From contig JAFRNC010000009.1 in NCBI GenBank assembly GCA_017430365.1, forward strand, positions 161,804 through 225,803: 64,000 bases of DNA, given 5' to 3'. A program made the translations under genes and the position numbers. Positions 2,415 through 54,344 of this stretch are shown one piece after another (position 1 is the stretch's first letter; each line of letters starts with the position of its first letter). Under the pieces are notes generated by a model. It saw only the letters and a program-made list of their open reading frames with translations. It did no database searches and was not told the DNA's origin. The DNA comes from Bacteroidales bacterium. GTDB taxonomy: Bacteria > Bacteroidota > Bacteroidia > Bacteroidales > UBA932.

Positions 2415-3089
2415 ATGGATATTCTCGAGGCCATCAGTGCACGGCATTCCGTGCGTAAGTATCTTGACCGTCCTATAGGGACGAAGGAACGTGAAATCAT
2501 TCAGGCTGCCGTCGAACGGTGCAACGCTGAAAGCGGGCTGCATATCCAGCTGGTGCTTGACGAGCCCCAGGCTTTCGCCGCGGGTATCTGGAAATACGGC
2601 CAGTTCTCCGGCGTCAGAAACTATTTCGTCATGGCCGGTCCGAAAGGGAAGGAGGCCGAGGAGAAAGTGGGCCGGTATGGTGAGGAGCTGGTATTGCTGG
2701 CCCAGACCCTGGGCCTGAATACATGTTGGGTCGGGCTTACCTACAGGAAGATACCGGGAACATTCACCATTGCCGACGGCGAGAAGATACATTGTGTAAT
2801 CTCGCTGGGCTACGGTGCGAACCAGGGTGTGCAGCATCCTCTCCGTCCCAAGGAGAAGTTTTATGAGGCGGAAGGAGAAACGCCGGAATGGTTCCAGAAA
2901 GGCGTTGAGGCCGCCCTGCTTACCCCCACCGCCGTCAACCAGCAGAAGTTCAAGTTCATCCTCGGCCCCGACGGAACCGTCGAGGCGATATCCCTTTTCT
3001 CTTTGATGGGCTATACGTCCATCGATCTGGGCATAGTCAAATACCATTTCGAACAGGCTGCGGGGAAGGAAAATTTCCGGTGGAAATAG
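2415..3089 (+). CDS. Nitroreductase-family flavoprotein
   Basis: 224 aa. The N-terminus MDILEAISARHSVRKYLDRPI is typical of the nitroreductase family. It is divergent from cbiK. Confidence 0.75.
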   Translation: MDILEAISARHSVRKYLDRPIGTKEREIIQAAVERCNAESGLHIQLVLDEPQAFAAGIWKYGQFSGVRNYFVMAGPKGKEAEEKVGRYGEELVLLAQTLGLNTCWVGLTYRKIPGTFTIADGEKIHCVISLGYGANQGVQHPLRPKEKFYEAEGETPEWFQKGVEAALLTPTAVNQQKFKFILGPDGTVEAISLFSLMGYTSIDLGIVKYHFEQAAGKENFRWK

Positions 3090-3116
3090 CGGAAACAGGC
3101 TTGTTGTCCCGTTTTT

Positions 3117-3227
3117 CGCTGCAACGGACACACTTGACAATCAGCCGATTACAACAGGTGATCCCCCTCAAAACGAGGGGGATCACTTTACATAAATAAC
3201 TGAATGCCAGATGCGTACATTGCAGCG
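3117..3227. repeat. 111-nt nested palindromic intergenic element, copy A
   Basis: Runs CGCTGCAACGGAC ... GTGATCCCCCTC-AAAAC-GAGGGGGATCAC ... GTACATTGCAGCG. It sits between convergent genes (nitroreductase and a TonB-dependent receptor). Three further copies of the same length are in the window. Confidence 0.9.
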
Positions 3228-3239
3228 AAAAAATGATGA

Positions 3240-5609
3240 TCAGAACTTGAAACCGACCGTAATCATGAAATGACGGGGTTTGGCGGGGCGGGTTGCGCTG
3301 ATGAAATATTTCGTGTTGAAAATGTTGTACAGGTTGCCGCCGAGCGTGACACCATTCCTGAGGGTGTAGAAAAGACCGCCGTCCACAATGAAGGTCGCGG
3401 GGAGATAGATGTTGTTGGTGATGTTTGTATACCGCTTGTCGGTATAGTTTCCGTTGATGTGGAACGAGAGGTTCTTCAGGGCGCCCGTCATGATGGTGTA
3501 ATCGGCGAAAGCGTAGAAGGTCGTGCGCGGGAAGTTGGTGGCGCGCAGGTTGATCGTACCGTCTTCGTTATAGGTGACCCATGTGGCGTCTTTCGGAATC
3601 CAGTCAAGGTAGCTGGCTACGGTACGCATGTCCGAAACGGCAAGGCCGCCGGTGAATTGGAAGCCCTGGAAAGGACGGAGGGTCAGATCGAGGTCAACGC
3701 CTTTTGAAGTCTGCTTGCCCACCTGGGCGCGGACGCTCTTGTTGATGACGGATCCGTTTTCTTCGACAGGTTTGTTGCCGATGGTCCTGACAACGTTATA
3801 TTTCCGGATGTAGAATACACTGGCGTTGACGTCGAGCCAGTCTGCCAATTCGTAGCGTACGCCGAACTCTCCCTGATAACCCTTCTCCGGCTTGAATACT
3901 TCTCCGCCGGCTTCATCGGGATTGAATTCGTTGCCGTTGCGGTCGATGTAAATGTAATTGGGGTTATAGACCGTGGTGTTGGGTTTGAAATAATTTGCTA
4001 CGGAGCCATAGAACGAAAGGGGCTCCACCGGCTGCCATACCAGTCCCAGTTTATAGGTCAGCGCACCGGTACGGGTCTCTTTCCATGCGGCGCGGTCTGC
4101 CTCTTCATAATGTTGCCTGCCGTCCTTGATGGTGGCTGAAGCATTCTGGTAGTGATAGAAATCGTAACGGAGTCCCACCATCGCCTTGAGTTGCTTGCTG
4201 AATGCGATGACATCATGAAGATAGATGCCATTCGTGATGTAATTGCGGATAGCCGCAGCCGAGACCTTGCAGTCCCACCAGTCCCGCACTGTGTGAGGAT
4301 CCTTGAGCGAAACTATTTCACCAAGGCCGGGACCCCAGACGTCGTCGTTGTTGTATCCGTTGTACTGGGTATAGTTGAAGAACTGATATGTCCAGCCGAA
4401 GTTGTAGTTGTGATTCAGGTTTCCGGTATTGAACTTTCCGCCCAGTTCCAGGACATTGGTGTAGTTGTGGCTGTCGGGGTTGAAGCAAAGCGGAGAGCCT
4501 GACTTGACGTTTTCAAGGTCAATGTAGGTAGTGGCACCGTTGCGGGTGTTGATGTAATACCAGTCATAGATCGGCTGGGTGCTTGTAGGATAGCTTACGT
4601 TCTCGACGCACCAGTAATCCAGGTCGCTGTGACCGTAGTTGAAACGTTCGCGAAGCGTCATCCAGTCAGTGATCTTGTGGGTATAGTTTAGCGAGACATC
4701 TATGACCCGGCGCTGCATATGGTTGTTGGCATTGTCGTTGAGAGACAGGTCGTAATCGAAGAACGGGTTGCGTTCACCGCTCTTCTTGAAGATCTGGCCA
4801 CCGGCCGTAAAGACGTCCCCGGGCATGACCGGTGCTCCGCCGATGTCTGTGGTGTACCGGTCGTCGTTGAAAGAGACGACACCTTCAAGGTATCCGTTGT
4901 CCGTAATTGCTGTCCCCAGGGTGAACAGGCCGCTGAAATTGTTGACGTTCACTTCGCGATAGCCGTCGCCGTTGGCGTAGTGCACGTGTGCACGGTAGTT
5001 GACAGGCCCTATCAGTTTGCCGCCGAAACCGACTGTCGCTTCTTTCTGGTTCCAGCTGCCGAGGCTGATACTGGCGTTTACGGTCTGCTGCGGTGAGGCT
5101 TTCTTGCGCACGATATTGATGACACCGCCCATTACGGAGTGGCCGCTGAGCACGGACGAGGGACCCTTGAGTACTTCGATGGATTCCACCGATGAAAGGT
5201 CACTGAACGGAACGTTGTTGATCAGGGAACGCTCGTCGCGGATGCCGTCCACTGCAATGACGGCGTCTGTGGTTCCCCGGATGCTGTATCGTTTGAATGC
5301 ACCGAGTTGGTCGGATGTCTGTACGACGCCCGGCAGATATTTCACTGCGTCTTCAAGTTGCAGGATATGGTTGCGTTCCAAAGTCTTGGCTTCTATGCGG
5401 CTGACCGTGATCGGAAGGTCCTTGATGGGGACATCGAGGTTGAGCAATTTTACCTGGTTGTCCTGCAAGGGACGATAATAATAATCATAGATGGCTGCGC
5501 TGTCAAGCGAAAACACGGAGTCGACCATGCTTTTATGGCGCTCAGGCTGTTGGGCCGATGCTGTGATGGCGCATAAGGTACAGATTGTAAGCAGAATGGT
5601 TTTTTTCAT
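3240..5609 (-). CDS. TonB-dependent receptor, siderophore-receptor-like
   Basis: 789 aa. Signal peptide present. Plug motifs VESIEVLKGPSSVLSG and GGVINIVRKK. Terminal beta-strand is ...MITVGFKF. The start overlaps the PepSY gene stop (ATGA). Confidence 0.9.
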   Translation of the reverse strand: MKKTILLTICTLCAITASAQQPERHKSMVDSVFSLDSAAIYDYYYRPLQDNQVKLLNLDVPIKDLPITVSRIEAKTLERNHILQLEDAVKYLPGVVQTSDQLGAFKRYSIRGTTDAVIAVDGIRDERSLINNVPFSDLSSVESIEVLKGPSSVLSGHSVMGGVINIVRKKASPQQTVNASISLGSWNQKEATVGFGGKLIGPVNYRAHVHYANGDGYREVNVNNFSGLFTLGTAITDNGYLEGVVSFNDDRYTTDIGGAPVMPGDVFTAGGQIFKKSGERNPFFDYDLSLNDNANNHMQRRVIDVSLNYTHKITDWMTLRERFNYGHSDLDYWCVENVSYPTSTQPIYDWYYINTRNGATTYIDLENVKSGSPLCFNPDSHNYTNVLELGGKFNTGNLNHNYNFGWTYQFFNYTQYNGYNNDDVWGPGLGEIVSLKDPHTVRDWWDCKVSAAAIRNYITNGIYLHDVIAFSKQLKAMVGLRYDFYHYQNASATIKDGRQHYEEADRAAWKETRTGALTYKLGLVWQPVEPLSFYGSVANYFKPNTTVYNPNYIYIDRNGNEFNPDEAGGEVFKPEKGYQGEFGVRYELADWLDVNASVFYIRKYNVVRTIGNKPVEENGSVINKSVRAQVGKQTSKGVDLDLTLRPFQGFQFTGGLAVSDMRTVASYLDWIPKDATWVTYNEDGTINLRATNFPRTTFYAFADYTIMTGALKNLSFHINGNYTDKRYTNITNNIYLPATFIVDGGLFYTLRNGVTLGGNLYNIFNTKYFISATRPAKPRHFMITVGFKF

Positions 5610-7030
5610 ACTTTGATGTTATTGTTAGGTCTGATGTGTTTCTTCCTGAACAGTTTTCTGATACCGCGGGCAATCCATTTGACGCTGAGTACGATACCGG
5701 TGACGGAAAGTGCGGTACCGCCGATCATCAGTGTGTACATGACGATATTCCAGAGCCACGGGCGGTCGGTAAGGAACTTGAAGTCCAGTGTATGTAGTTT
5801 GTGGTAGAGCCAGTTGCGAGTGCGGGTGTCATCGTCGAACCGACGGGTTTCCAGGGTGACAGGATTGTAGTACCAGCGGGTGTGCATATAGTCGTCTACG
5901 ATGACGCGGTATACGGGAAGCGAGGTTTCATTGACTTTCCGTGTATGATAGTCGCGGTCGAATTCATCGATCAGCTCGACCGTGTAGGGAATGCTGTCGC
6001 GGTACTGCCGCTCCATATCGAGGCGTACCATGTCTTCGGTGATGACAAATGGTCTGACCCCGTCTGCCTGGGCATCGATGAATACGCGTTCCGTCGGGGA
6101 GATAGTCAGGGTATAATAGGGATGTCCTTTGAATTCGCTCCAGGCTAAAGTCCGGGTATCCGGATATGCTGCCAGTGCTGTGCGGTAGTCCAGTGTGTAA
6201 AGACCGGGATCAAAATAACGGGATTCGCCGCGGCGTCCGTCGGGCGGCCCGTTACGTTGCTCGGTTTTCGGCGCTTTCTTCAGGAATTCCGGCATGTCAG
6301 CCAGCGACATCATGCCGCTGAAGGCGAAAGTAATGGCGAAAATGCCGAAAGAGAAACCGAGGATGTAGTGCCAGTTATACCACTTCTTCTTATAAGGGGC
6401 CGCCTTTTTTTTGCTCTTGACGGCCACGCGGATGGCAAGGACGAAGCCCAGGATCACCATAATGCAACCTATGCCGGCCGCCCATTTCACTGAGTTCAGC
6501 CAGAGTTGCTGTTCCTGCCGGAGTTTCGTGAAATATACCCAGTGGGGTATGGCGCCGACCCAGGCCCACATGCGTTCTTTGTGCGAAGTGAACTGCAGCA
6601 CCCGGCCTGTCTTGGAGCCCAGATAAAGCTGATGTCGCTCCGGATCGTCAAAATGATACTTGTAGATTGGAAGCTCTTCCCGGTTGCGACCGAAAGGAAT
6701 CCATTGGTCCAGCTTTTTCAGCGTGTCGATACGTGCCACCGGAGCTGTGCACCAACTGCGGATGGTGGCTTCAAGGGTGTCTTCTACGGGAGTGAACGTC
6801 CGGGCGGAAATCGTCCGGTCCCGTTGATTGGCAAGTATTTCCGTAAGGTTGTCCTTGTCGGGCAGTTCCACCGTGACGAGCGGAGGCAACAACGCCAGTT
6901 GCTTGTCAGCGGACGCACGGGGGAAACCGTGATATATCATCACGATACCCGTGGAGAACCATAGGAAGAACAATCCACACAGTAATACTCCCAGCAACTT
7001 GTGCAGGAAAGAAAGTATTTTGTACAACAT
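5606..7030 (-). CDS. PepSY-associated TM helix protein (PiuB-like)
   Basis: 474 aa. N-terminal TM segment LLGVLLCGLFFLWFSTGIVMIYHGFPR, further TM helices mid-protein and at the C-terminus. This architecture is typical of PepSY_TM proteins encoded next to TonB-dependent receptors. Confidence 0.8.
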   Translation of the reverse strand: MLYKILSFLHKLLGVLLCGLFFLWFSTGIVMIYHGFPRASADKQLALLPPLVTVELPDKDNLTEILANQRDRTISARTFTPVEDTLEATIRSWCTAPVARIDTLKKLDQWIPFGRNREELPIYKYHFDDPERHQLYLGSKTGRVLQFTSHKERMWAWVGAIPHWVYFTKLRQEQQLWLNSVKWAAGIGCIMVILGFVLAIRVAVKSKKKAAPYKKKWYNWHYILGFSFGIFAITFAFSGMMSLADMPEFLKKAPKTEQRNGPPDGRRGESRYFDPGLYTLDYRTALAAYPDTRTLAWSEFKGHPYYTLTISPTERVFIDAQADGVRPFVITEDMVRLDMERQYRDSIPYTVELIDEFDRDYHTRKVNETSLPVYRVIVDDYMHTRWYYNPVTLETRRFDDDTRTRNWLYHKLHTLDFKFLTDRPWLWNIVMYTLMIGGTALSVTGIVLSVKWIARGIRKLFRKKHIRPNNNIKV

Positions 7031-7094
7031 GTTTTGGAATTGAATTCCAGCATACGTGAAACAGCACTGACCCGGCGCTTTTCCACCTTATTGC

Positions 7095-7240
7095 AGACAG
7101 GCAGGTCTTCTGACTCGTTCCGCTTCAAGCGTCTTCCCGGCAATAAGCCAGTGACAAAGGAATGCTTGAGGCTTCAAAGGAACATACAGCAGCGGGCACT
7201 GCTCCGGATTCACACCGGATTCCCTATTCTTTCTCAACCG
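7095..7240 (-). promoter_or_regulatory. Cobalamin (B12) riboswitch, 5' leader of the PepSY-TBDT operon
   Basis: The reverse complement reads AATAGGGAATCCGGTGTGAATCCGGAGCAGTGCCCGCTGCTGTA ... GTCACTGG ... GGGAAGACG ... B12 box AGTCAGAAGACCTGCC (plus-strand 7100-7115). It lies about 70 nt upstream of the ATG at 7030. Confidence 0.85.
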
Positions 7241-7272
7241 TGGTCACGGCTTCGAACACCTGTTTGCGGAGG

Positions 7273-7280
7273 CAAAAATA
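7273..7280 (-). promoter_or_regulatory. Bacteroidetes -7 promoter box (TATTTTTG) for the riboswitch-1 operon
   Basis: Matches TAnnTTTG on the minus strand, about 30 nt upstream of the riboswitch core. Confidence 0.5.
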
Positions 7281-12163: not shown

Positions 12164-12204
12164 TTTCAGCTCCCGCTTTTTCCTGAGCGGGCGAACTCCA
12201 AATC

Positions 12205-12395
12205 CGGTTCTGGCAGGTCTTCTGACTTTCCCCGGTCCGCTCCGCCTTCCCGGGCATCAGCTTCGTTCCGGCCCGGCAGACGGGGGATGGCGAAGCGCCC
12301 AGTGGCGTTTTGGAAGCGGACCCTTTACGGGGATTACAGCTGCAGGTACAGTCCCGGTCTTTCACCGGATTCCCTTGCACCGGAGCGGCCAAATG
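12205..12395 (-). promoter_or_regulatory. Cobalamin (B12) riboswitch, 5' leader of the TBDT / CbiK-lipoprotein / DASS operon
   Basis: The reverse complement reads GGGAATCCGGTGAAAGACCGGGACTGTACCTGCAGCTGT ... GCCACTGGGCG ... GGGAAGGCG ... B12 box AGTCAGAAGACCTGCC (plus-strand 12212-12227). Confidence 0.85.
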
Positions 12396-12418
12396 CCGCC
12401 CGGTTACCAAAACCGATG

Positions 12419-12426
12419 CAAATATA
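12419..12426 (-). promoter_or_regulatory. -7 promoter box (TATATTTG) for the riboswitch-2 operon
   Basis: Matches TAnnTTTG on the minus strand, about 25 nt upstream of the riboswitch. Confidence 0.5.
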
Positions 12427-12446: not shown

Positions 12447-12454
12447 TATCTTTG
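12447..12454 (+). promoter_or_regulatory. -7 promoter box (TATCTTTG) for the riboswitch-3 operon
   Basis: Matches TAnnTTTG on the plus strand, about 30 nt upstream of the riboswitch. It sits back to back with the minus-strand box. Confidence 0.5.
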
Positions 12455-12484
12455 CCGCCGGTTTCGGTGTCCACCGCCACCTGC

Positions 12485-12632
12485 CGGGGCGGGGAAGAAT
12501 AGGGAATCCGGTGAGAATCCGGAGCAGACACCGCTGCTGTCAGTCCTGCTAAACGCCTTGACAATCAATGGTCACTGTCCTTCAGGGGGCGGGAAGACGT
12601 CAGGGATGGGACAAGCCAGAAGACCTGCCGTA
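12485..12632 (+). promoter_or_regulatory. Cobalamin (B12) riboswitch, 5' leader of the TBDT / lipoprotein / cbiA / ABC importer operon
   Basis: Reads AATAGGGAATCCGGTGAGAATCCGGAGCAGACACCGCTGCTGT ... GTCACTG ... GGGAAGACG ... B12 box AGCCAGAAGACCTGCC (12614-12629). Confidence 0.85.
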
Positions 12633-12680
12633 ACCTTGATAGGAATGAAGCTTTCGGGTAATAAAAGCTTGCCGGATCCG

Positions 12681-20755: not shown

Positions 20756-22054
20756 ATGAAAAGAATGATACTGGCGGCGTTGCTGCTGCTGGCCGGCGGC
20801 TTCTGCAGGGCGCAGCTTCCCACGGGGACGTGGTCGGGCGCGCTTGATATACAGGGTACTTCCCTTACCCTGGTGTTCAATTTCAACGAAGAAGGATGCT
20901 CGATGGATGTTCCCGACCAGGGAGCCAAGGGCATAGCCGCCTCGGCTTCCCTGACTCCGCTGGGAGCTGTCCATATTGATATTGCGGCCCTCGGCGCCTC
21001 TTTCGAAGGGTTCCGTTTCGGTGAGAGGATCAACGGCACCTTCACTCAACGGGGCGCTTCTTTCCCTCTGACCCTTGCTCCTGGAGCACCGCAGAGAAAG
21101 CGTCCCCAGACGCCGAAACCGCCTTTCCCGTATACTTCGGAAGAGGTTTCTTTTTCCAACGGCGATGCCGTCCTGAAGGGAACTCTGACCCTGCCGGCCG
21201 GATGCGACCGCTCGACTCCGGTACTTCTTATGGTGACCGGCAGCGGCCTGCAGAACCGGGATGAAGAGTTGTTCGAGCATAAACCTTTTGCCGTCATAGC
21301 GGATTTCCTGGCCAGGAAGGGCATTGCCACGCTCCGCTACGATGACCGCGGTTTCGGTGAATCGACGGGCGATGTCGTGAACGTCACCACCGCTGACCTG
21401 AAAGAAGACGCGGCTGCCGGCATCGCGCTGCTGCGCGGACGCTTCGACCGGGTCGGCGTCCTCGGGCACAGCGAAGGGGGTACGATAGCTTTGATGCTTG
21501 CGGCTGAGAAGAAAGCCGATTTCATTGTCAGCCTGGCGGGCATGGCCGTCTCCGGAAGGGAAACACTGATGCAGCAGAACCGTCAGGGGCTGGCTCAGGC
21601 AGGAGTTGACCAGACTACGGTCGATACTTACTGCAAGGCACTTTCCGACACATTCGACGCCGTAACCGACGGGATGCCGCTCCCGTCCCCCGGCCGTTAT
21701 GACATGCCTGCCGCCCTGCAGCAGAATCTCCAGCAGGTCCAGGCCCAACTGGCACTGCCGTATCTGCGTTACTTCATCCAGTTGGATGTTTCGAAGCTGC
21801 TGGCCGACGTCACCTGCCCGGTCCTTGCGTTGAACGGTACCAAAGACACGCAGGTGGACTGCACAGCCAATCTCGGCGCGCTTGAGAATGGACTGCCCGC
21901 CTCAAGCCCGAACAGCGTACGGGCCGTGGACGGTCTCAATCACCTTTTCCAGACCTGCACCACGGGCCTTGCCGCCGAATACCCCCAGATAGAGGAGACC
22001 ATATCTCCGGAGGTCCTGGACATTCTCGCTGCCTGGCTCGTTTCGCTCCGTTGA
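20756..22054 (+). CDS. Secreted alpha/beta hydrolase
   Basis: 432 aa. Signal peptide present. Nucleophile elbow GVLGHSEGG. Confidence 0.75.
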   Translation: MKRMILAALLLLAGGFCRAQLPTGTWSGALDIQGTSLTLVFNFNEEGCSMDVPDQGAKGIAASASLTPLGAVHIDIAALGASFEGFRFGERINGTFTQRGASFPLTLAPGAPQRKRPQTPKPPFPYTSEEVSFSNGDAVLKGTLTLPAGCDRSTPVLLMVTGSGLQNRDEELFEHKPFAVIADFLARKGIATLRYDDRGFGESTGDVVNVTTADLKEDAAAGIALLRGRFDRVGVLGHSEGGTIALMLAAEKKADFIVSLAGMAVSGRETLMQQNRQGLAQAGVDQTTVDTYCKALSDTFDAVTDGMPLPSPGRYDMPAALQQNLQQVQAQLALPYLRYFIQLDVSKLLADVTCPVLALNGTKDTQVDCTANLGALENGLPASSPNSVRAVDGLNHLFQTCTTGLAAEYPQIEETISPEVLDILAAWLVSLR

Positions 22055-22097
22055 GTGTCAGCCGGTTTTTGCGCTGTTTTTTTTACAGTTTTTTTTG

Positions 22098-22208
22098 CGC
22101 TGCAACGGACGCATCAGTCAATCAGCGTATTATGCAAAGTGATCCCCCTCAAAACTAGGGGGATCACTTTCAGTAAACAGCTCACAGTCAGCTGCGTCCG
22201 TTGCAGCG
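22098..22208. repeat. 111-nt nested palindromic intergenic element, copy B
   Basis: Runs CGCTGCAACGGACGCA ... GTGATCCCCCTC-AAAAC-TAGGGGGATCAC ... TGCGTCCGTTGCAGCG. It sits between convergent genes. Confidence 0.9.
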
Positions 22209-22228
22209 CAATTGGCGCCGGAGCGGTG

Positions 22229-22510
22229 TCATTTCAGGTACGCCTTCAGTGCTTCCACGTATTCGTTGAAGGCTGCGAGCCCGGCCGGGGTGATCATGCA
22301 GGTCGTGCAGGGCATTTTGCCCTTGAAGCCTTTCTCCACGGAGATGTATCCGGCAGTGGTCAATTTGTCAATCTGGACGCTGAGGTTCCCTGATGTCGCT
22401 CCCGTCTGCTTTTTCAGGTAGGTGAAATCGGCGGAATCCACCCCTGCCAAAAGCGACATCACTGCCAGCCTCAGCTCCGAATGGAGGATGGGGTCGAGTT
22501 TCGGGAACAT
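22229..22510 (-). CDS. Small winged-helix transcriptional regulator
   Basis: 93 aa. The stretch LRLAVMSLLAGVDSADFTYLKKQTGATSGNLSVQIDKLTTAGYISVEK is a typical wHTH. The gene starts 3 nt after the stop of the upstream membrane protein gene. Confidence 0.7.
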   Translation of the reverse strand: MFPKLDPILHSELRLAVMSLLAGVDSADFTYLKKQTGATSGNLSVQIDKLTTAGYISVEKGFKGKMPCTTCMITPAGLAAFNEYVEALKAYLK

Positions 22511-23089: not shown

Positions 23090-23279
23090 TGTAAATATAC
23101 TTTTTACTTGTTTCCGGATCCGGCATAGCTGCGCAGTCTGTACCGTATCACGATGCAAAGGTAAACAAGTTTATATTATAAACCAAATAAAATTGTAAAC
23201 TTTTTTCAAAAATTTTACCACCGGGCACCAAACCGCTGATACTCAGGATATAGGGTTATCTGGTCGCGATTCTGCGTTC

Positions 23280-27448: not shown

Positions 27449-28446
27449 TAAGGCACGAACTTGTCCTGGATGATTTTTCCTTCGAGGCAGGCGGCCGTCT
27501 CGAGCATGTAAAGATAGTATATCACACCTCCCGAATCCCTCGGGGGCGGGTGATCTGGATTTGTCATGCACTGACTGCCAACAGCGATCCCGAAGACTGG
27601 TGGCCGGAGATGGTGGGACCCGGCAGATTCTTCGACCCGGAGAGGGATTTCATCGTCTGCGTGAACATGATCGCATCGCCATATGGATCATCCGGCCCGG
27701 CTTCCGTCAATCCTGAGACAGGTATTCCTTTCTTCTTCGATTTTCCTGCTGTTACGGTACGCGACATGGTCACTGCGATGGCCGCGGTAAGACGTCATCT
27801 GGGTATAGGAAAGATCGATTTGCTGGTAGGAAGTTCCATCGGCGGTTTCCAGGCGGTGGAATGGGCGGTGACGGAACCTGATTTGTTTGAGAAGGCGGTA
27901 TTCATCGCCACGTCCCCCCGCGTGTCGCCATATCTGTCGGCGGGCATCGAGACTCAGCGTATGGCACTCGAGGCCGACCAGACGTTCCGGAAGGCGTCTG
28001 ATCTTTCCGGCGGAGCCGCAGGGCTGCGCTGCGCCCGCGCCCAGGCATTGATATCCTACCGTTGTTTCGAAGGATACGGGCTTACGCAGGCCGAGGCCGG
28101 CGACGATACGCTTTTTGCGACGCGGGCCGCCTCGTACGAACGCTATCAGGGAGAGAAACTGGTGCGCAGGGGATTCGATGCGTATTCATATTATTATCTT
28201 TGCAACGCCGTGGACAGCCACAACGTCGGCCGCGGCCGCGGCGGCGTCGCCGCAGCACTCGGCCGCATCCGGGCGAAGACCGTCGTCGCTTCGATCGACA
28301 CCGACTGCATTTTCCCGCCGCAGGAGATTGAAACCTGGGCTCCGTTCATCCCCGGAGCCGTTTATAAACGTTTAACATCTTCTTTTGGACATGACGGTTT
28401 CCTGCTTGAGACCGGACAATTGACTGAATTATTATGCAAGTTCTGA
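27445..28446 (+). CDS. metX: Homoserine O-acetyltransferase
   Basis: 333 aa. Motifs ICHALTANSD and GSSIGGFQAVEW (G-x-S-x-G). ATGA overlap with metY. Confidence 0.85.
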   Translation: MIRHELVLDDFSFEAGGRLEHVKIVYHTSRIPRGRVIWICHALTANSDPEDWWPEMVGPGRFFDPERDFIVCVNMIASPYGSSGPASVNPETGIPFFFDFPAVTVRDMVTAMAAVRRHLGIGKIDLLVGSSIGGFQAVEWAVTEPDLFEKAVFIATSPRVSPYLSAGIETQRMALEADQTFRKASDLSGGAAGLRCARAQALISYRCFEGYGLTQAEAGDDTLFATRAASYERYQGEKLVRRGFDAYSYYYLCNAVDSHNVGRGRGGVAAALGRIRAKTVVASIDTDCIFPPQEIETWAPFIPGAVYKRLTSSFGHDGFLLETGQLTELLCKF

Positions 28447-30800
28447 AATTCGGCGGCACTTCGGTCGCCCGCCCCGAAAAGATTATCGATATCGTCCGTA
28501 CGTCGCTGGAACGCGACCGGACAATCCTTGTATGCTCGGCCATCAGCGGCTGCACCGATACCCTGATACGGCTGGGCCGTCTTGCCGCCGCCCGCGACGA
28601 ATCATATCTGTCGGAGCTGGACGCCCTTTATCAGCGGCACCGTCGAATGATAGAGGACCTCTTGACGGCCGACAGGGTGCCTGCCGTTACCGAGACGGTC
28701 GACGGACTGTTTGACTCGCTGCGGGGTATCCTCCACGGCGTGTTCCTGCTGGGTGAACTCAGCCCGACCAGCCTGGATGCCGTCCAGGGCTACGGCGAAC
28801 TGTTTTCGACCAGGATCCTCGCCGACAAGTTCATCTCGCTCGGGATACCTTGCCGCTGGCTGGATTCCCGCCAGATCATACGCACGTCCGGCGGGGTGGT
28901 GGATACGGTTAAAACCTATGCCAACGTTTCGGCCGCCATCGATGCTTTCCCCCATACTTCGCTGTTCATCGTTCCAGGATTCATAGCTTCCGACGAGCAG
29001 GGCCGTGTCACGACCCTTGGGCGGGGAGGCTCCGACTACACCGCTTCGCTTTACGCCGTCGGGGTAAACGCACGCCTCGTGGAGATTTGGACCGATGTGC
29101 CGGGCATTATGACATCGAATCCGAAAACCGTTCCGACCGCCCGGACCATACGCAACATTTCATACAGGGCGGCACAGGAACTCTCTCATTTCGGAGCCAA
29201 GGTTATCTTCCCGCCGACCATCCAGCCCGTCGTAAATGAAGGGATTCCGATTTATGTGAAAGATACTTTCAAGCCCGACGATCCCGGGACCCTGGTGGAG
29301 AAGAATCCGCCCCGTCGCGAAGAGGCTCTGCTGGGCATCGCCAATTCCGACAAGATCGCCCTCATATCGCTGGAAGGAAGCGGTATGGTAGGCATTCCCG
29401 GCTTTTCTTCGAGGCTGTTCGATGCGCTCACCCGCGCCGGTATCAACATCATACTCATCACCCAGGCATCTTCCGTCCATACGATGTGCATCGCCATAGC
29501 CGAGGCGGATGCGCCGGCGGCGAAGAAGGCGGCGGACACTTGTTTCGCATACGAAATCTCCCTGGGCAAACTTCAACCGCTCAAGGTGGAGAAAGGCTAT
29601 TCGATCGTATGCCTGGTGGGTGACGATATCCTGGGACACAGCGGCGCGACCGGCCGTATGCTTGCGGCGCTGGGCGCCCGCGGCATTCCGGTCCGCGCCA
29701 CGGCGCAGGGCTCTTCCGAGAGGAACATTTCGGTTATCGTAGCTTCCGACAAGGCAGACGAGGCCATACGGGCAATCCATGGAGAATTCTTTGACCGTTC
29801 GCCGCTGGAGACGGTGAACCTGTTCATAGCGGGCTACGGGAATGTCGGCAAGGCGCTGGTGAAAATGATCCTGGAAAACAGGGAGGCCATCGCGCGCCGT
29901 ACAGGCAAGGATCTGCGCATATGCGGTCTGGCCAACAGCCGCCGCTATCTGCTGGATACCGCCGGAGTGGATCCTTTCGCACTTGCAGAAGGAACCGCCG
30001 GTTCCTTCTTCGACGCGCTTGCCGACCTTTCCTTGTCCGGTTCAGTGTTCGTCGACTGTACGGCCAGCGAAGAAGCAGGACTGAGATATACACAGTTGAT
30101 GAAGGCCGGTTACGGCATTGTGGCCTGCAACAAGATCCCGTTCGCCGGCAGTTCGGCGCGCTATGAGGCGCTTACCAGGACAGCGGCCCGAGAGCATGTG
30201 GGCCTGCGATATGAGACGACAGTCGGTGCCGCGCTGCCGATTCTCTCTACACTTGAGCGGGCGGCGGTTTCCGGTGACACTGTAGTGTCGGTCGAGGCCG
30301 TGCTTTCGGGGACGCTGAACTATCTGTGTGACAAATATGAGGGCCATGACTTTGATGCATTGGTTGAAGATGCCCGTCAGAAAGGCTACACTGAGCCGGA
30401 CCCTTCGATCGACCTGAGCGGCCGCGACGTTCTTAGGAAGACGCTTATCCTTTCCCGCGTCGCCGGCGCGCCGCTGGAAGAAAGCGATGTCCGTCTTGAA
30501 CCCTTCCCCGAAGAGTCGGCCCTGGCTGCGGCTTATGCCCAAGCCACTGATGCCGGACGGCGCCTGCGCTATGTCGCATCTCTCCGTCGCGAAGTCCCGG
30601 CTGACGGGACCGCCCGGTGGTCCGCCACCGTCGGTCTTCAGGCCGTCGGTCCCGACAGTCCGCTCTATTCGCTTCCTGGCACCGACAATTGCGCAGTCAT
30701 AACTACGGCCGACTATCCGTCGCCGCAGGTGATCCGCGGCGCCGGCGCAGGCCCCCGCCAGACCGCCGCCGGAGTACTCCTCGACATACTGTCACTCTGA
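28434..30800 (+). CDS. thrA: Bifunctional aspartate kinase / homoserine dehydrogenase
   Basis: 788 aa. MQVLKFGGTSV aspartokinase start, ACT region, C-terminal homoserine dehydrogenase. Overlaps metX by 13 nt. Confidence 0.9.
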   Translation: MQVLKFGGTSVARPEKIIDIVRTSLERDRTILVCSAISGCTDTLIRLGRLAAARDESYLSELDALYQRHRRMIEDLLTADRVPAVTETVDGLFDSLRGILHGVFLLGELSPTSLDAVQGYGELFSTRILADKFISLGIPCRWLDSRQIIRTSGGVVDTVKTYANVSAAIDAFPHTSLFIVPGFIASDEQGRVTTLGRGGSDYTASLYAVGVNARLVEIWTDVPGIMTSNPKTVPTARTIRNISYRAAQELSHFGAKVIFPPTIQPVVNEGIPIYVKDTFKPDDPGTLVEKNPPRREEALLGIANSDKIALISLEGSGMVGIPGFSSRLFDALTRAGINIILITQASSVHTMCIAIAEADAPAAKKAADTCFAYEISLGKLQPLKVEKGYSIVCLVGDDILGHSGATGRMLAALGARGIPVRATAQGSSERNISVIVASDKADEAIRAIHGEFFDRSPLETVNLFIAGYGNVGKALVKMILENREAIARRTGKDLRICGLANSRRYLLDTAGVDPFALAEGTAGSFFDALADLSLSGSVFVDCTASEEAGLRYTQLMKAGYGIVACNKIPFAGSSARYEALTRTAAREHVGLRYETTVGAALPILSTLERAAVSGDTVVSVEAVLSGTLNYLCDKYEGHDFDALVEDARQKGYTEPDPSIDLSGRDVLRKTLILSRVAGAPLEESDVRLEPFPEESALAAAYAQATDAGRRLRYVASLRREVPADGTARWSATVGLQAVGPDSPLYSLPGTDNCAVITTADYPSPQVIRGAGAGPRQTAAGVLLDILSL

Positions 30801-30880: not shown

Positions 30881-30991
30881 CGCTGCAATGTACGCATCAG
30901 TCTGTCAATCGTTTACGCAACCTGATCCCCTCCCGGCGGAGGGGGATCAGGTTGAGCAAGCCGTTGATTCTCAATTGTGTCCGTTGCAGCG
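30881..30991. repeat. 111-nt nested palindromic intergenic element, copy C (variant hairpin)
   Basis: Runs CGCTGCAATGTACGCA ... CTGATCCCCTCC-CGGC-GGAGGGGGATCAG ... TGTGTCCGTTGCAGCG. It sits between the co-directional genes thrA and asd. Confidence 0.9.
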
Positions 30992-31003: not shown

Positions 31004-32002
31004 ATGAAAGTAGCAGTAGTGGGCGCCACCGGACTTGTGGGCACCCGGATGATACAAGTCCTCGAAGAGAGGCATTTTCCAGTCGATGAACTCATACCCG
31101 TCGCTTCGGAACGGTCGGTCGGCAAGACCGTCGTATTCCGCGGCGAACCCGTCACCGTCGTCGGGGTCGACGAGGCGATATCCCGCCGGCCGGCATTGGC
31201 AATCTTTTCCGTCGGGGCGGCCGCCTCGCGGGAACTGGCGCCCCGTTTCGCAGCCGCGGGCTGCCGTGTTGTCGACAACTCCTCATGCTGGCGCATGGAT
31301 CCGGACAAAAAACTGGTCGTGCCCGAAATCAACGCCGAAGTCCTGACGGCCGATGACTGGATCATAGCCAATCCAAACTGCTCCACGATCCAGATGCTGC
31401 TGCCCCTGGCACCCCTCCATAAACTTTTCACGGTAAAACGTGTAGTCGTCTCCACTTACCAGAGCATCACCGGTACCGGGCAGAAAGCGGTTGTCCAGAT
31501 GGCCGCCGAGCGGGAGGGGAAGGAATGGGGAACCTATCCCGCGGTCTATCCCTATCCTATCGACGGCAATATACTTCCGCACATCGACAGTTTCCTCGAT
31601 AACGGTTACACGAAGGAGGAGATGAAGATGGTGAACGAGACCCATAAAATCCTGGATCCATCCATCGCAGTCAGTGCCACGACGGTGCGCGTTCCCGTCC
31701 GCGGCGGCCATAGCGAATCGATCAATCTCGAATTCGAAAAGCCTTTCGAACTCGACTGGATACGGGAAATACTCGCCGCAACTCCCGGCGTCGTCGTGCA
31801 GGATGATCCCGCCAGAAACATTTACCCTATGCCGCTCTACGCCGAAGGCCGCGACGAGGTCTTCGTCGGCCGCATCCGCCGCGACTTCTCTCTTCCAAAC
31901 GGACTGAATTTCTGGTGTGTGGCCGACAATCTGCGCAAAGGCGCCGCAACCAACGCCGTACAGATAGCCGAAGAACTGCTCCGCCGGGGCTTTATCGGCT
32001 GA
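31004..32002 (+). CDS. asd: Aspartate-semialdehyde dehydrogenase
   Basis: MKVAVVGATGLVG Rossmann start and active-site motif ANPNCSTIQM. The track start at 30977 lies inside repeat C. Confidence 0.9.
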   Translation: MKVAVVGATGLVGTRMIQVLEERHFPVDELIPVASERSVGKTVVFRGEPVTVVGVDEAISRRPALAIFSVGAAASRELAPRFAAAGCRVVDNSSCWRMDPDKKLVVPEINAEVLTADDWIIANPNCSTIQMLLPLAPLHKLFTVKRVVVSTYQSITGTGQKAVVQMAAEREGKEWGTYPAVYPYPIDGNILPHIDSFLDNGYTKEEMKMVNETHKILDPSIAVSATTVRVPVRGGHSESINLEFEKPFELDWIREILAATPGVVVQDDPARNIYPMPLYAEGRDEVFVGRIRRDFSLPNGLNFWCVADNLRKGAATNAVQIAEELLRRGFIG

Positions 32003-34439: not shown

Positions 34440-35885
34440 ATGTCAGCTGCGAAAGATATCTTGCTGAATGACATCCGCAGCGGCGCATCGCTGGGGGTTC
34501 GGGAGCGTGTGCGGCTCACGCTGCTGCTCAGCGGCCCGGCGATTCTCGCCCAGTTCGCTTCCGTGCTGCTCCAGTTTATCGATGCGTCGATGGTCGGCAG
34601 CCTTGGAGCAGGCCCTTCGGCCTCAATAGGACTGGTATCCACCAGCACCTGGCTGTGCGGCGGGTTTTGCATCGCGCTTGCACAGGGTTTCTCAGTGCAG
34701 GTCGCCCATCGTATCGGTGCCGGTGATTTTGCGGGAGCCAGGCAGGTGCTCCGGCAGGGCCTGGTGACCGTGACGGTTTTTTCCATCGCGCTGTCGCTGA
34801 TTGCCGCCGGCATCGCCGGGCCGCTGCCGCGCTGGCTGGGCGGAGAAGAAGCCATCCGTGCCGACGGTACTTCATACTTCCGCATATACGCCTGTTTCCT
34901 GCCGATGATGCAGCTCGGCTTTTTTGCCAGCACGATGCTCCAGTGCAGCGGTGACATGAAACTGCCCAGCATGCTCAATATCCTCATGTGCGTGCTCGAC
35001 GTGCTTTTCAATTTCCTGCTGATTTTCCCCACCAGGGAGGTCCGGTTATTCGGTGCAAGTGTCACGCTGCCGGGCGCCGGGATGGGGGTCCGCGGAGCTG
35101 CCATGGGCACGGGTCTGGCGGAGACCGTCGTCGCGATACTTATAATGTATTTCCTGCTGGTCCGCAACCGGAATCTTGCCATCGCCGGCGAACGGGGCTC
35201 CTTCCGTCCGGAGCGCGACTGCCTGAAGAAGGCTTTCGGCATTACCGGGCCGATGTGGGTGCAGAACCTGGTGATGAGGGGTGCCCATGTCATGAGTACA
35301 CTCATCGTCGCTCCTCTGGGCGCAATTTCAATTGCGGCCAATTCCTTTGCGATAATAGCTGAGAGTTTCTGCTACATGCCCGGTTACGGTATGGGCGATG
35401 CCGCCACGACCCTGGTCGGGCAGAGTCTGGGAGCGGGACGGAAGGATCTGGCCCGCGCTTTCTCACGTGTAACCATCTCGCTCGGCGTAGGAATCATGGT
35501 CGTCCTGGCCGTATTCATGTTCTTTCTGGCCGTCCCCATCATGCGGCTGTTGAGTGTGGATCCGGATGTCGTTGCCCTGGGGGCAAGATGCCTGCGACTG
35601 GAGGCTTTCGCCGAGGCTGGATATGCCGCTGCGATAGTGGCGAACGGCGCCTGCGTAGGGGCAGGGGACACCAGGGTCCCTGCCGCGATGAACCTGCTGA
35701 GCGTCTGGGTCGTCCGGATCGGACTGGCCCTTGTCCTCACGCCCAGGCTGGGACTTATCGGCTACTGGATCGCGATGTGCATCGAATTGAATGTCCGCGG
35801 CATTTTCTATCTCCTCCGGGTTCACGGGACCCGCTGGATGGAACATAGTTTGACAAATATAGAATCAGAATATGAAACTAATTAA
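34440..35885 (+). CDS. MATE-family efflux transporter
   Basis: 481 aa, about 12 TM helices, with a typical MATE N-terminus. Confidence 0.8.
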   Translation: MSAAKDILLNDIRSGASLGVRERVRLTLLLSGPAILAQFASVLLQFIDASMVGSLGAGPSASIGLVSTSTWLCGGFCIALAQGFSVQVAHRIGAGDFAGARQVLRQGLVTVTVFSIALSLIAAGIAGPLPRWLGGEEAIRADGTSYFRIYACFLPMMQLGFFASTMLQCSGDMKLPSMLNILMCVLDVLFNFLLIFPTREVRLFGASVTLPGAGMGVRGAAMGTGLAETVVAILIMYFLLVRNRNLAIAGERGSFRPERDCLKKAFGITGPMWVQNLVMRGAHVMSTLIVAPLGAISIAANSFAIIAESFCYMPGYGMGDAATTLVGQSLGAGRKDLARAFSRVTISLGVGIMVVLAVFMFFLAVPIMRLLSVDPDVVALGARCLRLEAFAEAGYAAAIVANGACVGAGDTRVPAAMNLLSVWVVRIGLALVLTPRLGLIGYWIAMCIELNVRGIFYLLRVHGTRWMEHSLTNIESEYETN

Positions 35886-36717
35886 AAATCAGGAATTCGG
35901 CGGCGAACGGCCGCTGTTCGAGGTTCACGGCGCCCGACTGGAGAACATCACGATTATCGATGGGGAATCGGGCATCAAGCATTGCAGCGACCTGGAAGCC
36001 GACGGCTGCAAGTTCTACGGCAAGTATCCCTGGTGGCATGTAGACCGCTGCCTGATCACGAACTGCTATTTCGCACCCGGATCCAGGTCTGCGATCTGGT
36101 ATACGAACGACCTGGTGATGCGCGACTGCACCATCGACGGTCCGAAATTCTTCCGCGAGATGAAGAACGTCACGCTCGAGCGCGTGCTCATCACCGACGC
36201 CGATGAGACCTTCTGGAAAGTGAACGGGCTGAAGATAAAGGATGTGGAACTGCGCGGCGGCACATATCCCTTCATGTTCTCCCGCAATATCGAAGTGGAC
36301 GGACTGGTGAGCGACGCCAAGTATGTATTCCAGTACTGCAGGGACGTGGTCGTGCGCAATGCGAAGATCACGACCAAAGACTCTTTCTGGGAGTGCGAGA
36401 ACATCACGATCTATGATTCCGAACTCGACGGCGAGTATTTGGCCTGGCATTCGAAAAACGTACGTCTGGTGAACTGCAAGCTGAGCGGCGAACAGCTGTT
36501 GTGCTATGCGCAGGGACTTGTCCTGGAGAATTGTACATTCGACGCGGCTTGCGACCGGGTATTCGAGTACTCTACCGTGGAGGCCGACATACGAGGCCAT
36601 ATAGAGAATATCAAGAATCCGACTTCCGGCCATATAGTGGCTGACAGCATCGGCAGCATAACGCTAGACGAAAACATACGTCAGCCGGCCGACTGCGTGA
36701 TCACGGTCCGCAAGTAG
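35872..36717 (+). CDS. DUF3737-like beta-helix protein
   Basis: 281 aa. MKLIKNQEFGGERPLFEVHGARLENITI..., with repetitive beta-helix-like turns. Overlaps the MATE gene by 14 nt. Confidence 0.65.
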   Translation: MKLIKNQEFGGERPLFEVHGARLENITIIDGESGIKHCSDLEADGCKFYGKYPWWHVDRCLITNCYFAPGSRSAIWYTNDLVMRDCTIDGPKFFREMKNVTLERVLITDADETFWKVNGLKIKDVELRGGTYPFMFSRNIEVDGLVSDAKYVFQYCRDVVVRNAKITTKDSFWECENITIYDSELDGEYLAWHSKNVRLVNCKLSGEQLLCYAQGLVLENCTFDAACDRVFEYSTVEADIRGHIENIKNPTSGHIVADSIGSITLDENIRQPADCVITVRK

Positions 36718-36731
36718 GACGGTATGCTGCC

Positions 36732-37958
36732 ATGAAAACTTCTTTCGATTTCGAAATCCCCGTCGACCGCCGCGGCAGCGGCAGTTACAAATGGGATGCG
36801 GATCTGCCGGACGGCGTCGTCCTGACGCCGGCGCAGCGCCGCCGCGTGATTCCGCTCTGGGTCGCGGATATGGATTTTCAGGCGGCCCCGTGCATCCTCG
36901 ACGCACTGCGCCGCAGGGTGGAGCACGGAGTGTTCGGCTACACTCGCGTCCCCGATTCATACTACGACGCCACGATCCGCTGGTTTGCGGACAGGCACGG
37001 CCTTTCCCTGAGAAGGGAGTGGATACTGTATACGACAGGCGTAGTGCCGGCTCTTTCCGCCGTCATAAAGGCATTCTGCAGTCCCGGTGAAGGTGTCATA
37101 GTCCAGACGCCGGTCTACAATTGTTTCTTTTCCTCCATCCGCAACAACCAGTGCCGGATCGTGGTTGTGCCGCTCCTGCGCCGGAATCTTCCTGGTGGAC
37201 GCTTTACCTACGGAATGGATTATGACGGACTCGAGAGAGCCTGTGCAGACCCCGGCAACCGTATACTCCTCCTGTGCAATCCCCATAATCCGGCCGGGCG
37301 CCGCTGGACGGGGGAGGAACTCCGCCGCGCCGGCGACATCGCCCGGCGCTACGGCGTGATTGTCGTCTCCGACGAAATCCATTGCGAGATTGTCGCGCCC
37401 GGAACGGCCTATACGCCGTACGCTTCGCTTGGCGGCGATTACTGCCGCGATTCCGTGACGCTTGGCTCGCCCTCGAAGAGTTTCAATACTGCGGGCCTGC
37501 AGATTGCCAACATCATCTGTGCGCGTCCCGAATGGCGGGAGAAGATCGACAAGGCCATCAACATCAACGAAATCTGCGATGTCAATCCCTTCGGGCCGGT
37601 GGCACTCGAAGCCGCTTATTCCGATGAGGGTGCCAGATGGCTCGCGGCGCTGAACGAGATAATATGGCGGAATTACGAAACGCTGCTGACCCGGTTCAGG
37701 AGCGAGCTGCCTGAATTCCCGGTGGCCGAGTTGGAAGCCACTTATCTGGCCTGGATCGATACATCGGTCCTGCCGCTATCCTCGGAAGAGATCGAAGCCG
37801 AACTGCTCCGGGGGGAGCAGGTCTGGATCAACGCCGGTTCAATGTACGGCGCCGACGGCTTCATCCGCATCAATCTGGCTTGTCCTTCCGCCCGTCTGCA
37901 GGAAGGTCTCGACCGGCTGGTAGAAGGCCTCCGCCGCCTCCGCCGGGCTTTCTTGTAG
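36732..37958 (+). CDS. MalY/PatB-type cystathionine beta-lyase (class I/II aminotransferase fold)
   Basis: 408 aa. Motifs FDFEIPVDRRGSGSYKWD and the PLP-lysine motif GSPSKSFNTAGL. Confidence 0.85.
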   Translation: MKTSFDFEIPVDRRGSGSYKWDADLPDGVVLTPAQRRRVIPLWVADMDFQAAPCILDALRRRVEHGVFGYTRVPDSYYDATIRWFADRHGLSLRREWILYTTGVVPALSAVIKAFCSPGEGVIVQTPVYNCFFSSIRNNQCRIVVVPLLRRNLPGGRFTYGMDYDGLERACADPGNRILLLCNPHNPAGRRWTGEELRRAGDIARRYGVIVVSDEIHCEIVAPGTAYTPYASLGGDYCRDSVTLGSPSKSFNTAGLQIANIICARPEWREKIDKAININEICDVNPFGPVALEAAYSDEGARWLAALNEIIWRNYETLLTRFRSELPEFPVAELEATYLAWIDTSVLPLSSEEIEAELLRGEQVWINAGSMYGADGFIRINLACPSARLQEGLDRLVEGLRRLRRAFL

Positions 37959-53080: not shown

Positions 53081-53118
53081 GCCTGCGACCCGTTTTCCTC
53101 CGGGCTGCGGGTATTTTT

Positions 53119-53229
53119 CGCTGCAACGGACGCAACTGTCTTTCAGATACTTATGCAAAGTGATCCCCCTCAAAACGAGGGGGATCACTTTGCATAACAA
53201 CCTGATTCATAAGTGTGTCCGTTGCAGCG
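53119..53229. repeat. 111-nt nested palindromic intergenic element, copy D (longest inner stem)
   Basis: Runs CGCTGCAACGGACGCA ... TTATGCAAAGTGATCCCCCTC-AAAAC-GAGGGGGATCACTTTGCATAA ... TGTGTCCGTTGCAGCG. It sits between convergent genes. Confidence 0.9.
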
Positions 53230-53276
53230 CAAGAAATGCAGAGGGCGGAAGATGAGGGCGGAAGATGGGGGCGGAA

Positions 53277-54299: not shown

Positions 54300-54344
54300 T
54301 TTACCACCAATAATACCGATATCCATATACTTCCCCTCAAAAAA

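Follow-up and report, generated by a model that had tools for sequence, protein, structure and literature searches.

What are the long palindromes that recur between the genes of a rumen Bacteroidales genome, and how did they come to be there? The question arises from a stretch of 64,000 nucleotides (hereafter the window) of contig JAFRNC010000009.1, positions 161,804 to 225,803 of the forward strand, in the Bacteroidales bacterium assembly GCA_017430365.1. A reading of its letters alone (hereafter the original prediction) had described four intergenic copies of a nested palindromic element, the first at positions 3117–3227, and likened it to repetitive extragenic palindromic sequences (REPs) or bacterial interspersed mosaic elements (BIMEs), to Correia or other miniature inverted-repeat transposable elements (MITEs), or to a dedicated bidirectional terminator or protein-binding module. 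The analysis reported here points to the first of these. I consider it very probable (about 85%) that the four elements are long "double-foot" REPs, similar to the REP doublets known as REPINs, belonging to a system of REPs and REP-associated tyrosine transposases (RAYTs).

Four copies of one element in the window

I read and aligned the four sites, and their coordinates and anatomy are as originally described. Each copy spans CGCTGCAA to TTGCAGCG in exactly 111 nt (hereafter the core), with conserved inverted ends (arms CGCTGCAAYGKAC / GTMCRTTGCAGCG) and a GC-rich hairpin at the center. The copies lie at 3117–3227 (copy 1), 22098–22208 (copy 2), 30881–30991 (copy 3) and 53119–53229 (copy 4), none with an assigned strand, and score 124.6, 117.7, 111.9 and 118.3 bits, respectively, with a covariance model of the family. 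The central hairpins (3158–3186, 22139–22167, 30922–30950 and 53160–53188) are 29 nt long and occupy core positions 42–70, with 41 nt on each side, which places them at the exact midpoint, as claimed. The hairpin sequence GTGATCCCCCTC-AAAAC-GAGGGGGATCAC quoted for the element is exact in copies 1 and 4; copy 2 departs from it by one mismatch, and copy 3 carries a compensated variant, CTGATCCCCTCC-CGGC-GGAGGGGGATCAG.

The occurrence of the arm pattern in the window is far beyond chance: without mismatches, the 13-nt pattern is matched only at the eight arms. With filters off, the covariance model gives the four copies 98–125 bits and the next best match in the window 12.5 bits. Each copy folds as one long hairpin, with folding z-scores of −5.6 to −13 on both strands. 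The suspicion that the element belongs to no described family was borne out for Rfam, as the Rfam 15 covariance models at gathering thresholds match only three cobalamin riboswitches in the window and nothing at the element, and copy 1 yields only noise at E values up to 10.

A family of fixed length

The four copies belong to a larger family, and the element is conserved in related genomes, which the original prediction had proposed to scan. Searching one genome per species for two arms 75–95 nt apart recovered at least 85 stretches in at least 17 assemblies, all but one from metagenome-assembled genomes (MAGs) of uncultured rumen Bacteroidales, and the family totals more than 100 copies across at least 17 such MAGs. 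The length is nearly invariant. Within a permitted range of 101–121 nt, exact-arm copies among the matches listed measure 111 nt in 96 of 99 cases, 110 nt in two and 112 nt in one; permitting two mismatches per arm added seven further copies, all of 111 nt. Neither solo arms nor arm pairs at other spacings were found in the related loci (numbered with the prefix L below) searched with up to two mismatches per arm. The covariance model detects ~103 copies in 603 kb of these loci, at 73–134 bits except for one of 55 bits and one of 21 bits, and decayed relics of the element are nearly absent.

The copies themselves appear to be old and diverse, with a mean identity of 74% within and 71% between genomes, few pairs above 85%, and no master sequence that is abundant in the sample. 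Part of the invariance at core positions 1–13 comes from the search pattern itself, of which the fixed length and the conserved state of positions 15–16, 25–27, 33–34, 47–50 and their mirrors are independent. A scan of viral contigs gave zero matches to the element, and a literature search for a described Bacteroidales repeat of such a kind found none. The sole non-Bacteroidales record among the matches listed is L077 (JAFSWT010000111, 4 kb), from a MAG labeled Schwartzia sp.; this contig is probably misbinned, since its flanks align with the Bacteroidales locus L054 at 78% identity.

A RAYT gene flanked by copies of the element

It had been noted that no transposase or RAYT-like gene lies near the four copies. 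This is true of the window, in which tblastn found no RAYT gene, but not of the family, as related genomes carry a RAYT gene flanked by copies. I sought a partner gene at loci with several copies close together, and identified a gene of ~305 codons, convergent with a gene for a low-molecular-weight phosphotyrosine phosphatase (LMW-PTP). This gene pair has a copy of the element on each side in L059, L015, L020, L055, L060, L009, L050 and L022+L014. In L009 (RGIG2727) the RAYT gene, at 1005–1851, aligns as two pieces in different frames, and is either a frameshifted pseudogene or the product of an assembly error.

The 305-aa protein matches the Pfam domain Y1_Tnp at 27–30 bits (cut-off 23), as do 30 of 30 homologues scanned. 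Its best NCBIfam match is "REP-associated tyrosine transposase" (E = 2e-9, model positions 7–142 of 146), while the IS200 model of NCBIfam gives only 18 bits. An HUH motif, DHIH (DH.H), and a tyrosine motif, AY[VL]YNNPVE (Y..NNPVE), are invariant among the homologues, and a database search returned 260 relatives, all of ~305 aa, one of which is called RayT by JGI. An AlphaFold model was obtained with a mean predicted local distance difference test score (pLDDT) of 84 and a predicted template modeling score (pTM) of 0.86. A Foldseek search of the Protein Data Bank with this model has only Y1 transposases on top, with ISDra2 TnpA and 4ER8 at probability 1.00. The latter, a structure of the E. 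coli RAYT in complex with a REP hairpin, has the lowest root-mean-square deviation (rmsd) among the leading matches, 3.4 Å over 128 columns. The C-terminal ~165 residues are predicted to be helical, with weak matches to HTH_23.

A metagenome scan identified 80 loci encoding RAYT relatives, and a copy ends ~100–125 nt before the RAYT ATG in 26 of the 26 metagenome loci with room upstream (identity tiers of 56–99%), usually with a second copy beyond the LMW-PTP gene. RAYTs of 38–44% identity have full-length but weak matches to the model, of 22–55 bits, immediately upstream and downstream of them. These sister elements measure ~106–116 nt and share the same layout, but have different central stems and different ends (CGTGGCAC, GCTGGAG, CTTGGCAC, ATTCAAATCG and TCTGACAC). 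They lie beside the RAYT gene in L086, at 3812–3925 and 4933–5046, as well as in L124, L131, L137, L141, L144, L145, L156, L163, L166, L167 and L172. Clustering of 25 RAYTs by the unweighted pair group method with arithmetic mean (UPGMA) yields clusters that match exactly the end types of the flanking elements.

In the genome RUG13471, the two copies that bracket the main RAYT are the most similar pair (96% identity), and a second RAYT paralogue of 39% identity is encoded on the minus strand at L056 4754–5659 (CADAOB010000016). Around the latter lie at least four copies of a different repeat, a short hairpin resembling classical REPs, CTTTCTGTCC-N6-GGACAGAAAG (L056 ~4565–4710 and 5785–5925), and judging from this arrangement RUG13471 seems to hold two RAYT/REP pairs. 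The other element types (CGTGGCAC, GCTGGAG, TTGGCAC and the short REP) were looked for in the window, and none was found.

The REPtron arrangement, combined with co-divergence of RAYT and repeat, defines REP-RAYT systems (PMC6006769; PMC5581495; PMC3733652), and both are seen in the related genomes. The resemblance to REP/BIME elements was thus rightly seen, and the REP/REPIN assignment is preferred to that of a MITE because, in related genomes, copies of the element flank a RAYT-like gene.

Under this assignment the elements would be non-autonomous, hairpin-forming and extragenic, and would be copied or moved in trans by a cognate RAYT (an HUH/Y1 enzyme) encoded once elsewhere in the genome. 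By analogy with the TnpA of IS200/IS605 and E. coli TnpA-REP (PMC6006769; PMC3733652), the RAYT would recognize the folded single-stranded DNA form of the element, read a tetranucleotide foot (here GCTG, at the 5′ end, which pairs with the CAGC of the 3′ end), and cleave and rejoin single strands, leading to insertion without duplication. Copies would persist because their length and pairing are maintained by selection, whether this acts on the population of elements or is exerted by the host, and effects on flanking mRNAs or promoters would be secondary.

Constraint on a symmetric hairpin

A gapless alignment of 93 copies was used to identify covariation. Mirrored columns pair in 79% of cells, compared to 36–43% when the partner columns are slid, and the observed covariation was matched by none of 500 shuffles. 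The layout, from the outside, is a stem (core positions 1–16), an 8×8 internal loop (17–24), a stem TCAG/CTGA (25–28), a 4×4 loop (29–32), a further stem (33–40), the central stem (41–52) and a terminal loop (53–59). In the central stem AU is swapped with GC, and UA with GC or CG, with 14–32 sequences per pair; double changes number 35 AU against 28 GC at one pair, and 31 UA against 23 GC and 9 CG at another. A whole block can also be exchanged, with GAT/ATC replaced by CCT/AGG.

Is the constrained molecule an RNA strand or DNA? In the central stem G-U is as frequent as A-C, and copies in tandem contexts have no bias in orientation with respect to transcription (5 against 11). The arms exist in two variants, A (..GCAATTGATTGTCAG) and B (..GCATCAGTCAATCAG), combined as A/B in 38 copies, A/A in 19 and B/B in none, and the weak orientation signal in the alignment is due to these variants. 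I rejected a strand-specific RNA reading on these three grounds. The constraint appears to be on a symmetric hairpin, as expected of folded single-stranded DNA or a cruciform and not of one RNA strand.

Gain, loss and retention at orthologous sites

Sites that are filled in one genome and empty in another, which had been proposed as a check on mobility, were found in related genomes. In the window, the 14-nt spacer at 36718–36731, between the genes at 35872–36717 and 36732–37958, is empty, and the orthologous RUG13471 spacer is filled (L027 2720–2830). The intergenic region 23090–23279 of the window also has no element, where L049 has one copy (2149–2259) and L019 has two (3068–3178 and 3726–3836). 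The two L019 copies (RUG13471, 3068–3836) are in the same orientation, ~90% identical by eye, and bracket a small lipoprotein-like gene that is lacking from the matching window spacer; this gene may have been gained or lost between the two copies.

Cleaner pairs of filled and empty sites are provided by L104 compared to L108/L109, and by L054 compared to L020. The inserted block in these comprises the core, a T/pyrimidine-rich tail of 7–17 nt and an A/purine-rich tail of 8–15 nt, for a total of 133–136 nt.

Copies are also retained. Orthologues of copy 3 are found at the same site and in the same orientation in three other genomes, where the flanking genes are ~80% identical and the rest of the spacer is unalignable. 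The fixed length, the scarcity of relics and the orthologues kept at saturating divergence together argue for continuing selection on intact hairpins, whether for mobility, for the host, or for both.

Several observations weigh against the REP-RAYT interpretation. The canonical REP foot, GT[AG]G, is lacking: the consensus contains neither GTAG nor GTGG, and the foot proposed here is GCTG. The aligned ends read C-GCTG-CAAC in this family and C-GTGG-CACC in a sister family, with the complement at the 3′ end. The minimum-free-energy folds have one long hairpin and no arm-internal hairpins, and so the predicted structure is one long hairpin, not the textbook REP doublet, in which each arm folds as a short REP hairpin of its own; a doublet would fit the presence of two conserved 16-nt ends in inverted orientation and of two arm variants. 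The mobile unit may not coincide with the core: the filled and empty pairs suggest that the core moves with tails of 7–17 nt. The protein, at 305 aa, is about twice the usual RAYT length, and its NCBIfam RAYT score of 37 bits is below the equivalog cut-off of 80. There is also no sign of current activity, since each genome holds old and diverse copies, of which few pairs are more than 85% identical. Finally, I infer the RAYT of the window's own genome, which would lie outside the 64 kb; the window organism and a RAYT of the CGCTGCAA clade both occur in samples of one metagenome series.

Flanks, gene context and a possible role in RNA

Outside the core, the flank consensus is pyrimidine-rich/TTTTS on the left and SAAAA/purine-rich on the right, so that both strands read YTTTTS[core]SAAAAR, and this lengthens the outer stem. 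In the window, copy 1 is extended by a T-run at 3112–3116 and an A-run at 3228–3233; copy 2 has a T-run plus G at 22089–22097 and CAA at 22209–22211, and copy 4 a T-run at 53112–53118 and CAAGAAA at 53230–53236. I considered whether the elements had landed in pre-existing hairpins, and rejected this: the complementarity of the flanks (10.97 observed, compared to 10.39 with mismatched partners) is generic and not locus-specific, with a pyrimidine-rich left and a purine-rich right flank in all copies.

Short purine-rich tandem repeats adjoin the right flank of several copies, or their pyrimidine-rich complements the left flank. They are seen at 53240–53290 of the window (after copy 4), in L043 from 7615 onward, in L040 from 2369 onward, in L045 to the left of 4864, and in L049 at 2260–2330, with units such as GGCGGAAGATGRG (two to three times), (GGAATCAGCG)n, (GAAAAGGTAGCG)n, (CCCAA)n and (GCGCAAGGA)n.

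Genes were called with my own codon model, and the window calls were checked with Pfam. Three of the four window copies do lie between convergent genes, as had been stated: copy 1 between a nitroreductase (2415–3089, +) and a TonB-dependent receptor (3240–5528, −), copy 2 between an alpha/beta hydrolase (20756–22054, +) and an HTH_34 protein (22229–22510, −), and copy 4 between a thioredoxin-like protein (51848–53080, +) and FecR (53277–54326, −). Copy 3 lies between tandem genes, aspartokinase/homoserine dehydrogenase (28434–30800, +) and asd (31004–32002, +). It begins 80 nt past the former and stops 12 nt before the ATG of the latter, and one side of it therefore faces a gene start.

Among the 76 family copies with both neighbors called, 27 are in convergent, 37 in tandem and 12 in divergent contexts, compared to 17%, 66% and 16%, respectively, for all spacers. 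Convergent contexts are thus enriched about twofold (36% of copies against 17% of all spacers), and 60% of the adjacent gene ends are 3′ ends, many of them 20 nt or less from the stop codon. The original prediction that all copies sit at gene 3′ ends does not hold as a general rule, given the tandem and divergent contexts and the many copies that abut promoters.

Could the element then be an RNA structure encoded by the host and not mobile, such as a bidirectional terminator, an mRNA 3′-end stabilizer or an RNase target? The enrichment at convergent pairs and 3′ ends, the very stable hairpin on both strands and the retention of orthologous copies are all consistent with this, and an influence of REPs on mRNA stability is established in E. 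coli (background in PMC3733652). However, on both strands the hairpin comes after the T-run and before the A-run, which is the reverse of an intrinsic terminator. A consensus terminator scan called none at copy 1 or copy 4, and by eye there are at most ~4 T among the 8 nt after the central stem. The T-run on the wrong side, together with the gene context, indicates that the element is not a canonical terminator, and the proposal of a dedicated bidirectional terminator is not supported. The copies between divergent genes and those just upstream of promoters are also at odds with an RNA role, as are the lack of transcription-orientation bias and the symmetry of G-U and A-C in the central stem, and such a role leaves the RAYT link without explanation. 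As the primary explanation it is improbable, even if it survives best among the alternatives; as a secondary effect of a REP-RAYT element, an influence on mRNA ends is plausible by analogy with the E. coli REPs.

Spacing to promoter boxes

A second alternative is a protein-binding or promoter-associated DNA module, in which a host factor at the element ends would act in phase with adjacent promoters. Twenty-eight flanks have an outward Bacteroidetes −7 box (TAnnTTTG) within 72 nt, and its distance from the core end is 10 nt in 11 flanks, 11 nt in two, 21 nt in four and 22 nt in one; ~nine of the loci at 10–11 nt are independent. These spacings differ by approximately one helical turn, and the reversed control motif gave only three matches. 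One orthologous gene has differing members of the 10/11/21/22 series in different species, and one gene is also seen with an empty site. Examples are found at L023 7161–7178, L030 3982–3999 and L061 957–974, and on both sides of the copy at L060 542–652, where the boxes complete a palindrome of ~155 nt.

The pattern favors a promoter module, but a box within 22 nt is present on only ~9% of flanks, and most copies face gene 3′ ends. The usual spacing for the −33 box is ~19–21 nt. I therefore rejected the possibility that the element supplies a −33 box to adjacent promoters, as the spacing of 15 nt does not fit and no −33 TTTG is provided by the element at the usual distance. A preference in insertion site could yield the same pattern. 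The spacing may stem from a choice of targets beside the T/A tracts of promoters, from constant-length tails carried along with the element, or from selection on phasing with a bound protein. As an account of the element itself, a promoter module is slightly less probable again than a host RNA structure.

Absence of target-site duplications

Insertion appears to leave no duplication. In 96 copies, adjacent direct repeats of 3–8 nt are absent and those of 2 nt occur only twice; the longest direct match between flanks within 30 nt equals the null (4.03 observed, 4.12 null), and no target-site duplication is clearly seen in the filled and empty pairs. Despite its conserved terminal inverted repeats, small size and numerous intergenic copies, the element is very unlikely to be a DDE-type MITE (Correia, RUP or ERIC-like) moved by a classical insertion sequence (IS) transposase that binds 13–16 bp terminal inverted repeats, the least probable of the alternatives and a resemblance that fails, because there are no direct repeats beside the core or within 30 nt, no longer element, solo arm with the same ends or parent IS in the ~1 Mb of sequence examined, an interior with covarying pairs and fixed length that a DDE enzyme does not need, and a Y1/HUH enzyme as the only transposase consistently beside copies.

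The AAC/GTT in the ends and the gene between two copies in L019 led me to consider integron attC sites as well. An attC array was rejected, as the window copies are 9–22 kb apart, dispersed among housekeeping genes and in all orientations.

Relation to known systems

The REP-RAYT interpretation places the element beside the REP/BIME sequences and TnpA-REP of E. coli, and the REPINs of Pseudomonas fluorescens. In common with these, it is extragenic, high-copy and hairpin-forming, without target-site duplication; a low-copy Y1/HUH gene is flanked by its own repeats (REPtron), and repeat and RAYT types co-diverge. Compensatory changes keep the hairpin, persistence is long-term, and the RAYT is inherited vertically in synteny. 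The predicted N-terminal fold of the 305-aa protein matches that of the E. coli RAYT in 4ER8. Unlike these systems, which are found in Proteobacteria and have the foot GT[AG]G, the host here belongs to the Bacteroidales and the foot is GCTG. There is one fixed 111-nt hairpin, without short REP hairpins in its arms. The RAYT has a predicted helical C-terminal extension of ~165 aa, and the copies in a genome differ widely (74% identity), no master being abundant in the sample.

Closer parallels exist among the TnpA-Y1 subclasses. The long REPs of subclass 2.4 are termed "double-foot", and its enzymes have the tyrosine motif YIxNNP (PMC6006769); the elements described here are likewise long REPs that begin at the 5′ side with the foot and carry the complementary tetranucleotide at the 3′ side, and YxYNNP resembles that motif. 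Genes of subclass 2.6 occur in Bacteroidetes, flanked by atypical structures without the canonical GT[AG]G foot (PMC6006769), which agrees with the present case in both host and lack of the foot. In contrast to both subclasses, the HUH motif here is DHIH and not NH[IFVL]H, and the protein has 305 aa where the median lengths are 179–194 aa (PMC6006769). Subclasses with large C-terminal domains are reported not to be REP-associated (PMC6006769), whereas the 305-aa RAYT is. RAYT genes that lie between long terminal inverted repeats (TIRs) have also been reported, with the TIR families moderately abundant and in other species (PMC3733652); by description, these are similar in having longer inverted repeats unrelated to GTAG REPs, with scattered copies.

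The ERIC and Correia elements resemble the present family in outward form. They are imperfect palindromes of ~100–150 nt, intergenic and often in transcribed regions, in either orientation, and they are old, conserved, and present or absent between species. They are regarded as MITEs with TA duplications, and neither is known to have a RAYT partner. The present family differs in having no duplication and a Y1 transposase partner.

REPs or REPINs with a RAYT are already known as a kind of system, as are atypical structures near Bacteroidetes RAYT genes (PMC6006769). What is new is that rumen Bacteroidales hold this family of sequences together with its sister families, that the size is strictly 111 nt and the foot departs from the canonical one, that the copies are in phase with promoters, and that a RAYT of twice the usual length is REP-associated. 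It is possible, though I propose it tentatively and with the odds against it, that there is an undescribed subclass of 305-aa RAYTs (DHIH/YxYNNPVE, with a helical and possibly HTH C-terminus), that its partners are a superfamily of "double-foot" REPINs of fixed size (~111 nt), divided among uncultured rumen Bacteroidales into at least five co-diverging end types, and that these elements are coupled to promoters, with −7 boxes one or two helical turns from the element end.

Nearly all work on REPIN-RAYT systems has been done in Proteobacteria, in which they are a model of replicators that live long within genomes and are passed on vertically. A gut and rumen Bacteroidales system would widen this model, with several co-diverging pairs, a strictly fixed length and a longer transposase. 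The co-diverging pairs would also be a set of cognate proteins and DNAs, supplied by nature, from which to learn how hairpins are read by HUH enzymes. If the promoter coupling is true, either the RAYT targets promoter-upstream tracts, or recruitment has turned the REPIN ends into promoter-upstream modules; should the constant distance from Bacteroidetes promoters be functional, it would tie a selfish repeat to gene regulation. The family also accounts for a recurrent repeat that confuses the assembly and annotation of rumen MAGs, and may be of use as a strain-typing marker.

Cobalamin riboswitches in the window

The three cobalamin riboswitches of the window are located at 7083–7278 (−), 12195–12426 (−) and 12448–12646 (+). 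They adjoin TonB-dependent receptor and transport genes, and two of them lie back to back and are divergent.

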